Shown one piece after another: positions 42,484 to 58,503 of a stretch of DNA of 64,000 nucleotides. The stretch lies in IMG/VR virus record IMGVR_UViG_3300027126_000006. One strand, given 5' to 3'. The stretch comes from a virus. Positions within the stretch are counted from its first letter, which is position 1; every line of letters starts with the position of its first letter. Made by a program: the position numbers and the translations under genes. The notes under the pieces were generated by a model. It made no database searches. It was not told where the DNA came from and saw only the letters and a list, made by a program, of their open reading frames with translations.

Positions 42484-42822
42484 TGTGGGGGTATTGGATA
42501 ACAAGGAACCCCCGAAACCCCGCTTAGCCGATCAAGCAGCTAAGGCAAATACCTCATCGTTGGCATTTGTGGTTATTGCTTCTACGACCGGGTAATCCCA
42601 ATCCTAACGACTTTCGCATTGCCGAACTGTCCACTCTGTTACTCATTGCCCTGTCGAACCTATTTCGCCCCCATCAAAAGTAATCTAGTTTGGATTCGAA
42701 CCTTGTCCATGTATTGTCTACCTGCACGTCCCACCGTACTGGCCAGATTACTTTTGGTGGAGGCGGCGAGGCACTGCCCCCCGCGTCCAGAACACTTTTC
42801 TCTTTGCTTCATACAGTCATTC
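42484..42822 (-). ncRNA. ssrA: circularly permuted (two-piece) tmRNA; tag peptide ANDEVFALAA
   Basis: acceptor piece ends CGCCTCCACCA at 42755; coding piece starts GGGGGCGAAATAGGTTCGAC at 42672; G3:U70 pair; tag ORF 42564-42532; outer ends approximate. Confidence 0.92.
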
Positions 42823-43293
42823 TTATAATATCTCAAACCTCAAATTAGCGTGGTCTGGATATTGTACTGCCACTTCTCCTTCAGGACATTTATAATTGAT
42901 ATGCCCCAAAAGAGTTGCTGTTCCTTTTGCTATCATACTACGGTGATCTTTATCAATAGTAAAAGTGTATGCAAAGGTGTCAACTCTATGATTAGCTGGC
43001 CCAGAAAACTTCGTGACACTGGGTGTAGCTGGGTGAGCGTGATACTTGCTATCTTTTACTTCAATCGCGAATCCTGTCACATCACAATCATTTCTTAGTT
43101 TTTCTCGAGCTACTACTACATCAAACGTACCATCAACTGGTCCACTTGATATACGAAAATGTTCAGGGTGCCACTTTAAAATTTCTTTCGATGCTATCTG
43201 CTTCCATACTTCAAAACCGCCACCTAACATTGCAAATGTCGCTGCGATAACACCCAAGACTTTCTTCAAGCCTTCGATGTCTAGGGAAAGCAT
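42823..43293 (-). CDS. membrane-anchored hypothetical protein (probably late)
   Basis: N-terminal TM; ACTAAATA late-like motif near 43341. Confidence 0.6.
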   Translation of the reverse strand: MLSLDIEGLKKVLGVIAATFAMLGGGFEVWKQIASKEILKWHPEHFRISSGPVDGTFDVVVAREKLRNDCDVTGFAIEVKDSKYHAHPATPSVTKFSGPANHRVDTFAYTFTIDKDHRSMIAKGTATLLGHINYKCPEGEVAVQYPDHANLRFEIL

Positions 43294-46206: not shown

Positions 46207-46260
46207 ATGCTTCAGTAAAAGTTATATATGGGTGCAGAGATATAACTTTTACTGAAGCAT
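46207..46260. repeat. perfect 21-bp inverted repeat in the 3' trailer of the unusual tRNA-Ile
   Basis: atgcttcagtaaaagttatat-N12-atataacttttactgaagcat. Confidence 0.9.
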
Positions 46261-46264
46261 GGGG

Positions 46265-46357
46265 TGGTGCCCCTGGTTGGAATCGAACCAACGACCTGCC
46301 GCTTATCTGGCGCTGACGGGGTATAAATCCGCTGCTCTACCGCTGAGCTACAGGGGC
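46265..46357 (-). tRNA. atypical tRNA-Ile(UAU) with a 23-nt extra arm carrying a second GAU anticodon-like loop
   Basis: GCCCCTG/CAGGGGC-ACCA, normal D and T arms, anticodon loop TTTATAC, extra CGC-CAGATAA-GCG-GC-AGGTC. Confidence 0.85.
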
Positions 46358-46661: not shown

Positions 46662-46754
46662 ACTATTCTCCTTGAGATTATAAAAAGTACTCTTTCAAGT
46701 ACATGACCATTATAACACAGAACACAACTTCATTCAAATTTATTTTGTGTTCTT

Positions 46755-58426: not shown

Positions 58427-58503
58427 TGGTGGGCCCACTTGGGTTCGAACCAAGGACCAATGGATTATGAGTCCACTGCTCTAACCGTCTGAGCTATAGG
58501 CCC
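58427..58503 (-). tRNA. tRNA(CAU), most likely Ile2 (lysidine type)
   Basis: GGGCCTATAGCTCAG...CTCATAA...TGGTC...TGGGCCCACCA resembles bacterial Ile2. Confidence 0.85.

Follow-up and report, generated by a model that had tools for sequence, protein, structure and literature searches.

The 64,000-nucleotide stretch of viral DNA analysed here (IMG/VR record IMGVR_UViG_3300027126_000006, hereafter the window) contains, on its minus strand, a 93-nt gene (46265..46357) for a tRNA that carries two anticodon arms in tandem, the first presenting UAU in the normal position and the second being an anticodon-arm-shaped hairpin with GAU at the centre of its loop. This two-armed layout is widespread. Comparison of the family members indicates that the gene very probably specifies a functional elongator tRNA that carries isoleucine and decodes AUA. 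The best explanation of the whole molecule, on which our confidence is evenly balanced, is that this isoleucine-charged AUA reader uses its second arm as an identity handle for isoleucyl-tRNA synthetase (IleRS).

The gene in the window is a real tRNA. ARAGORN identifies it as tRNA-Ile(tat), and the Rfam model RF00005 matches it over its full length with 60.6 bits (threshold 29, E 4e-13), with 19 nt taken up as an insert within the variable region. Reading along the minus strand, on which all of the features of the gene lie, a 7-bp acceptor stem leads into a class I D arm (46334..46348) with a 4-bp stem and G18 G19, which is followed by position 26, the UAU arm, a single linker base, the second arm, an ordinary 5-nt variable loop (46293..46297, placed by spacing) and the T arm (46276..46292), the D and T arms being assigned from both the sequence and the alignment of relatives. 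The discriminator is A73, at 46268, and the CCA end is encoded (46265-46267). The first arm, which would do the decoding, spans 17 nt (46316..46332), and its five-position stem (G.U, C-G, G-C, G-C and A.C in the window) covaries in homologues. Its 7-nt loop, U-U-UAU-A-C, provides U33, the anticodon UAU that reads AUA (46323..46325 in the ARAGORN assignment), A37 and C38, and all of the features of a UAU-type tRNA-Ile, namely UAU in a 7-nt loop, U33, A37 and A73, are therefore present.

The second arm is also 17 nt long (46298..46314), and its stem has three Watson-Crick pairs with a G.G and an A.C position at the base. Its 7-nt loop carries A at the position equivalent to U33 and, at loop positions 3-5, the pseudo-anticodon GAU (46305..46307), which is delineated by family conservation. 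RNAfold predicts a five-arm cloverleaf but places the second loop one register off, as an 8-nt loop; the register used here is comparative, being taken from covariation, and is preferred. The parse proposed in the initial annotation, a tRNA with a UAU arm and an extra GAU arm, proved exact in all its coordinates when set against ARAGORN, Rfam and the sequence, and its statement that the acceptor stem is the same as that of the phage tRNA-Thr is also confirmed by the sequence. In class II tRNAs the long arm comes after positions 44-45 and leaves only 1-3 nt before the T stem, as in E. coli tRNA-Leu, whereas five unpaired nucleotides follow the second arm of the window tRNA and its D stem is of the 4-bp class I type. 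The anticodon, moreover, is UAU and not the CAU of the lysidine-containing tRNA-Ile2.

BLAST searches recover genes of 88-93 nt that are annotated as tRNA-Ile(tat), from one Acinetobacter phage and from 43 records of Vibrio phages; Vibrio phage Thalassa and Acinetobacter phage qsb1 provide homologues that can be cultivated. Five BLAST homologues with unrelated acceptor stems have an identical second loop together with compensatory changes in the second stem. We also scanned IMG/VR and one genome per prokaryotic species using a pattern in which part of the D arm, the UAU loop (with U33, UAU and A37) and the T arm were fixed, 29-38 bases between were left free, and the second loop was not required. 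The family counts that follow are of unique sequences and not of independent events, and the patterns sample part of the family. The matches listed include 194 unique long-insert UAU tRNAs from phages and bacteria, and 169 of these have a G-A-Y hairpin, defined as at least 3 bp closing a 7-nt loop with G-A-Y at loop positions 3-5, a frequency well above what chance would produce. Of these listed members 157 have GAU as their triplet and 12 have GAC, G and A being invariant, while there are 34 distinct second stems and 81 distinct acceptor strands; the consensus of the second loop is Y, N (A in 121), G, A, U/C, N, R. The expectation of the initial annotation that GAU would be kept in homologues while the stems covary was thus borne out among the matches listed. 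Its stricter form, an invariant GAUAA, holds for G and A only, since the third base may be U or C and the next base is free.

In an alignment of 98 sequences (A2), no sequence lacks pairing at any of the three inner positions of the second-arm stem, and each of the four second-arm pairs has undergone compensatory change, with both of its bases varying; in the 169 listed members, mismatches are usual at the outermost one or two positions of this stem. Discriminator A73 is present in 97 of the 98 aligned relatives. The window tRNA has every feature of the family (the UAU arm, the Y-N-G-A-Y-N-R loop, the spacing and A73), and its closest relatives are 90-93% identical to it, with compensatory stem changes, the nearest one listed (L012) being 93% identical. 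The remainder of the 194 listed sequences, which have no such loop, are mostly tRNAs from metagenome-assembled genomes (MAGs) of DPANN archaea, in which the insert follows the anticodon loop and there is no intact 3' stem strand. We read these inserts as introns, and the tRNAs that contain them are a natural negative control.

Some members of the family have features of their own. The commonest pair at 1-72 in the 98-member alignment is G1.U72 (45 of 98), which is unusual for elongator tRNAs; the window tRNA has G1-C72. The triplet GAC, the valine anticodon, occurs in the second loop of 12 members (L041, L044, L073, L328, L361, L375, L377, L413, L415, L427 and others) and is preceded by G in 11 of them; such members may be variants that are tolerated, or tRNAs by which valine is inserted at AUA. 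Odd two-armed tRNAs were also seen in which UAU is accompanied by a GUA-centred second loop, with the 10-nt spacing to the T stem kept, or by an AGC-centred loop, or in which AGC stands in both loops (L021/L026/L028/L084; L019/L109; L532).

The arm is linked to the UAU anticodon. Three scans of the same scaffold with an AGAU-loop arm, in which position 35 was not A, position 34 was not U with A35 retained, or UA was followed by a base other than U, gave no genuine case of such an arm with a non-UAU anticodon. The apparent non-UAU hits were UAU tRNAs in a shifted register, inserts read as introns, or chance matches, and a broader search for other second-arm tRNAs on the scaffold returned mostly intron-read inserts, many of them from giant-virus contigs. 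The position of the arm also follows a rule. Of the 169 members among the matches listed, 114 have 10 nt and 53 have 9 nt separating the last base of the second loop from the T stem, a spacing that corresponds to five stem positions plus a 4-5-nt variable loop, as in a normal anticodon arm; on the other side, the linker between the arms is 0-4 nt and the distance from the first arm 3-9 nt in the same members. With this constant spacing on the T-stem side and a variable one towards the first arm, the first arm is anchored to the D arm and the second to the T arm, each canonically.

These observations suggest how a tRNA of this kind might work. The UAU arm would read AUA on the ribosome, delivering the isoleucine that the tRNA carries, and the second arm would act as a mimic of an anticodon arm, showing to the host IleRS the triplet GAU, which is the anticodon well recognised by bacterial IleRS. 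The stretch from position 26 to the variable loop is taken up by the two arms, one after the other, and since spacing is normal on the D-arm side for the first and on the T-arm side for the second, either could in principle stack under the D stem. An arm swap could then present the GAU arm to the synthetase and the UAU arm on the ribosome. The identity handle needs such a swap because IleRS, a monomer, approaches the tRNA from the side away from the variable region. For the phage, the benefit would be extra capacity to read AUA, a codon that it uses heavily, without lysidine formation. Taken by itself, apart from the more secure reading of the gene as an AUA reader, this mechanism is one to which we give even confidence at most, and perhaps slightly less.

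The distribution of identity elements between the arms bears on this proposal. In E. coli the isoleucine set consists of A73, G34 A35 U36, t6A37, A38, C4-G69, U12-A23 and C29-G41 (PMC9976931). The window tRNA has A73, C4-G69 and U12-A23, and its first arm has U34, C38 and G29-C41; in its second arm, G, A and U are found together with A38 and a C-G pair at the 29-41 position. Across the two-armed family C4-G69 is not conserved. Among the matches listed, and in keeping with the proposal, C38 occurs in the first loop of 121 of the 169 two-armed tRNAs (72%), compared with 12% of the 104 unique one-armed viral UAU tRNAs listed, in which A or U is usual; the second loop has A38 in 84%, and 143 of the 169 (85%) have C-G at the 29-41 position of the second arm.

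A UAU tRNA is charged poorly by E. coli IleRS, a problem that M. mobile solves on the enzyme side, by means of Arg865 in its IleRS (PMC3575796). The two-armed tRNA looks like the opposite of the M. mobile solution, in that the triplet preferred by the enzyme is kept on a second arm. One-armed tRNA-Ile(UAU), or tRNA-Ile3, as known from M. mobile (PMC3575796) and as seen in viral contigs, resembles the two-armed tRNA in having UAU and A73, in reading AUA without lysidine, and in being used where TilS is absent. It has a short variable loop, whereas the two-armed tRNA has a whole GAU arm added and would represent a solution on the tRNA side. Genes for one-armed tRNA(UAU) are abundant in viral contigs, with at least 104 unique sequences (L120-L238). 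Judged from the genes, phages would have two solutions for reading AUA without lysidine, the one-armed and the two-armed UAU tRNAs.

Two families of suppressor tRNAs share the two-armed plan. The first amber case came from a scan for other tRNAs with long inserts, and its second loop, which differs from the first by one base, shows CUG. About 45 unique tRNAs that combine a CUA arm with a CUG arm of tRNA-Gln were found in viral contigs (L635-L723, e.g. L639 and L649, and also L537), and these have a covarying second hairpin with a tRNA-Gln loop, a spacing of 9-10 nt, and Gln-like acceptor and D arms. The contigs are 100-190 kb long, and when TAG is read through their median coding density rises from 0.30 to 0.59 by a crude measure. 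An opal counterpart, in which a UCA arm would be followed by the CCA arm of tRNA-Trp, was predicted before the scan for it was made, and a rough estimate was that only a few chance hits would be expected; at least 66 unique tRNAs with both arms well formed were obtained from metagenome contigs (L724-L842, e.g. L744 and L725). The 66 listed include 44 covarying second stems and have a 5-bp second hairpin, with a 9-nt spacing in 63, and the listed tRNAs have G73 in 65 of 65 and an acceptor beginning A1-U72, of the tRNA-Trp type. Both scans required both loops, which means that they show the existence and architecture of the two families and not an association between the arms, and U33 in the second loops was likewise fixed by the scan patterns.

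The amber and opal families are like the isoleucine family in the order of the arms, the 9-10 nt spacing to the T stem and the covarying second stems, and in all three (Ile, Gln-like and Trp-like) the triplet on the second arm is the one cognate for an anticodon-reading synthetase. They differ from it in reading stop codons and in having U33, the base fixed by the patterns, in the second loop. For GlnRS and TrpRS, as for IleRS, the anticodon is a major identity element (PMC9976931). No description of either suppressor family was found in the literature searched. The suggestion of the initial annotation that the second arm serves the synthetase gains support from these two parallel families for anticodon-reading synthetases, and that support is comparative in kind. 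We propose tentatively, with somewhat less than even confidence, that the three families may use a general trick in which each synthetase meets its cognate anticodon on the second arm (GAU for IleRS, CUG for GlnRS, CCA for TrpRS) and the first (UAU, CUA or UCA) is shown to the ribosome, possibly by an arm swap, such that phages and some bacteria could achieve lysidine-free AUA reading and stop reassignment with unmodified host synthetases.

Bacterial matches in the family scan come from many Actinomyces species, from Acidobacteriota, from several Proteobacteria and from others. In the Actinomyces tRNAs the second loop, which has U33, A37 and A38, matches the anticodon loop of tRNA-Ile(GAU) perfectly, and the Pseudoxanthomonas copies have the same second arm and acceptor stem as the window tRNA. 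TilS was not found in three Actinomyces genomes (the A. timonensis chromosome, G001, together with G002 and G003), and is present in Pseudoxanthomonas and in a Pyrinomonadaceae MAG. Among the 51 tRNA genes of the complete A. timonensis chromosome, the only CAU tRNAs are one initiator and one elongator Met, and tRNA-Ile2(CAU) is absent; there is one normal tRNA-Ile(GAU), and a 93-nt two-armed UAU tRNA is the only possible AUA reader. That A. timonensis has neither TilS nor tRNA-Ile2 is good evidence that the two-armed design is a working AUA reader, and we infer that the Actinomyces tRNA is charged with isoleucine. AUA is very rare in Actinomyces (15 of 22,325 codons sampled, or about 0.7 per 1000), and nearly all of its occurrences are in spurious GC-rich frames. 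The Actinomyces IleRS is of type 2, with a DUF5915 C-terminus, and those of Pseudoxanthomonas and the Pyrinomonadaceae MAG are of type 1, with a zinc finger. Since the two-armed tRNA is found beside both types, with or without TilS, the arm is not tied to one type of IleRS.

In the Actinomycetales, the strict UAU pattern matched three of 201 genomes, all with two-armed tRNAs, a result that is uninformative on Bifidobacterium. The possibility that the A. timonensis tRNA arose by recent duplication from the resident tRNA-Ile(GAU) was considered and is unsupported. With either arm deleted, the two-armed tRNA resembles the resident tRNA-Ile(GAU) no more than it does the tRNAs for Lys, Arg or Glu, the identities being 0.73-0.77.

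The window contains ten tRNA genes according to ARAGORN, the others mostly matching A-ending codons. The phage record has a GC content of 42%, and AUA accounts for 16.6 per 1000 codons in the window, which is 25% of the isoleucine codons. A CAU tRNA (58427..58503, minus strand), located by ARAGORN and from the sequence, has C4, C5 and an Ile2-like variable loop and resembles tRNA-Ile2 when classified by eye, in agreement with the tRNA-Ile2(CAU) that had been placed at 58427. It is a second possible AUA reader and would need TilS from the host; a search of the 82-kb virus record, itself about 50% complete, gave no TilS gene. The phage seems, then, to carry two AUA readers, one dependent on TilS and one free of it. 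The earlier proposal of TilS-independent AUA decoding is upheld by the Actinomyces homologues but qualified in the window phage, where the Ile2-like tRNA means that the two-armed tRNA is not the only route.

Upstream of a small ORF and the tRNA, a consensus scan found a promoter-like site (46709..46737, minus strand) with 10/12 matches and an extended -10 TG, in a scan whose site count is no higher than that of shuffles; the site may drive transcription of both. Beginning 4 nt past the CCA of the tRNA, a perfect hairpin of about 21 bp without a U tract (46208..46260, minus strand) gives only weak, microRNA-like matches in Rfam, and we regard it as a putative processing or termination element. 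The same RNA-gene region includes a circularly permuted tmRNA (42484-42876, minus strand; Rfam tmRNA_permuted 114 bits, alpha_tmRNA 72 bits). A megablast comparison of 12 kb of the window with the phage collection gave no match. The permuted tmRNA and the nearest bacterial copies of the two-armed tRNA hint, and only hint, at Proteobacteria as the host group.

Several observations count against an identity handle for IleRS. Mimicry of the anticodon arm is partial, the U33-equivalent being mostly A and position 37 being free, and t6A37 is a strong determinant for bacterial IleRS. A strict read-out by IleRS should not tolerate a valine anticodon, as is present in the GAC members among those listed. 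One-armed tRNA(UAU) is common in viral contigs, so that the arm is not generally required; there is no clean correlation with the IleRS type or TilS of the host; and the window phage has an Ile2-like CAU tRNA as well. The side from which IleRS approaches the tRNA also counts against the handle, which would have to rely on a hypothetical arm swap.

Some of these observations would be accommodated if the tRNA were an isoleucine-charged AUA reader whose second arm serves a partner other than IleRS. The arm might dock on the ribosome to limit misreading of AUG by U34, or guide an enzyme that modifies U34 or A37, G-A-Y being the site that the partner recognises. We consider this unlikely, although it is the alternative that survives best. 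A fidelity device would be useful, in that a UAU anticodon without modification reads AUG as well as AUA on the ribosomes of E. coli (PMC3575796), and the retention of only G, A and a pyrimidine, with GAC in 12 of the 169 listed members, suggests a partner that is looser than IleRS; the presence of the arm with both types of IleRS points the same way. Such a partner leaves unexplained, however, why the second triplet is cognate in three families (GAU for Ile, CUG for Gln and CCA for Trp) and why its spacing to the T stem is that of a true anticodon arm.

It is less probable again, and in our view improbable, that the second arm is left over from a duplication of the anticodon arm, whether retained for two-headed decoding, with UAU reading AUA and GAU reading AUC and AUU, or kept only for folding stability. 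The perfect tRNA-Ile(GAU) loop in Actinomyces would fit such an origin, as would the canonical spacing of each arm on one side and the U33 of the Gln and Trp second loops, although that base was fixed by the scan patterns. In the isoleucine family, on the other hand, the U33-equivalent is A in 121 and G in 22 of the 169 members among the matches listed, which should prevent the U-turn and decoding, the base of the second stem usually has one or two mismatched positions, and Actinomyces has a separate, normal tRNA-Ile(GAU). A role in folding alone leaves unexplained an invariant loop triplet over 34 different stems.

The resemblance of the second loop to that of tRNA-Ile(GAU) could also mean that the arm is a decoy or sponge, absorbing a host anticodon nuclease or toxin, and phage tRNAs do counter tRNA-cleaving defences. 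We know of no nuclease specific for tRNA-Ile(GAU), and this reading is doubtful to a greater degree than those above: a decoy need not be tied to UAU, as the arm is, the design is chromosomal in Actinomyces, where it is the sole AUA reader, and the Gln and Trp parallels sit in suppressor tRNAs, to which the logic of identity is better suited.

A very small probability attaches to the window tRNA being a class II-like tRNA charged with leucine, in the manner of nematode nev-tRNAs, or with valine or threonine, AUA being recoded. Nematode tRNA(UAU) with a long variable arm, reported to be leucylated in vitro (PMC3333845, PMC4300185), provides a precedent, A73 would fit both leucine and valine, the GAC variants show the valine anticodon, and the acceptor stem of the window tRNA is common to the phage tRNA-Thr. 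The D arm is nevertheless of class I, and the second arm precedes a retained 5-nt variable loop and does not occupy the class II position; E. coli LeuRS, in any case, needs specific D-loop and tertiary elements and not a long arm (PMC9976931). The 81 acceptor versions among the members listed show that a Thr-like stem is no family trait, and the two-armed tRNA lacks the anticodon bases that ThrRS and TyrRS recognise. Recoding is also at odds with Actinomyces, where the tRNA is the only possible AUA reader and there is no sign of a changed code.

Weakest of all is a precursor from which one hairpin is removed to leave an ordinary 76-nt tRNA, which is hardly credible even though deletion of either arm does give a canonical class I tRNA, as an excised arm needs no invariant triplet or fixed spacing and the archaeal intron-read tRNAs of the same scan look quite different; we also know of no bacterial enzyme that excises such hairpins. 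The alternatives that the initial annotation had kept in play, namely Leu or Thr charging, a nuclease decoy and a spliced precursor, all fit the data less well than an identity handle does.

Natural tRNAs with two anticodon arms were not found described in the literature searched. The nearest concept is the engineered pseudo-anticodon arm of Mukai 2020 (PMC7590224), in which a pseudo-anticodon in the variable arm recruits the synthetase and the real anticodon reads another codon. That system is artificial and combines an allo-tRNA chassis with HisRS fused to an additional anticodon-binding domain, whereas the two-armed UAU tRNA is natural, has a 7/5 class I scaffold and has no extra protein domain known to go with it. 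Class II tRNAs (Leu, Ser and Tyr), nematode nev-tRNA-Ile(UAU) (PMC3333845) and the Acidobacteria allo-tRNA(UAU) (PMC5389517) are similar in having a long arm between the anticodon and T arms and, in some cases, UAU. The two-armed tRNA is set apart from them by its class I D arm, its 7/5 branch and the full 4-5-nt variable loop that follows the arm, as well as by a 7-nt loop with a conserved triplet and by A73 where Ser-type tRNAs have G73. Allo-tRNAs have an 8/4 or 9/3 acceptor/T branch (PMC5389517), and the window tRNA has a 7-bp acceptor and a 5-bp T stem, both of which covary. Compared with tRNA-Ile2(CAU) and TilS, which perform the same task of reading AUA as isoleucine and achieve identity and decoding through one modified base, the two-armed tRNA needs no TilS, and its identity would come from a separate arm.

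The rules of tRNA identity assume that an anticodon-reading synthetase and the ribosome use the same anticodon, an assumption that accounts for the usual alteration or loss of charging when an anticodon is changed. If the second arm is indeed an identity handle, it would constitute a new identity mechanism in which one triplet is shown to the enzyme and another to the ribosome. This would explain how phages can have AUA readers in hosts whose IleRS rejects UAU, and how Gln or Trp could be placed on the suppressor tRNAs of stop-recoding phages by unaltered host enzymes. It would also offer genetic-code engineers a ready-made device for orthogonality, so far an engineered concept only. Where such genes are annotated as plain tRNA-Ile(tat), or are missed, the codon-reading capacity of phages and of Actinomyces is mis-stated.
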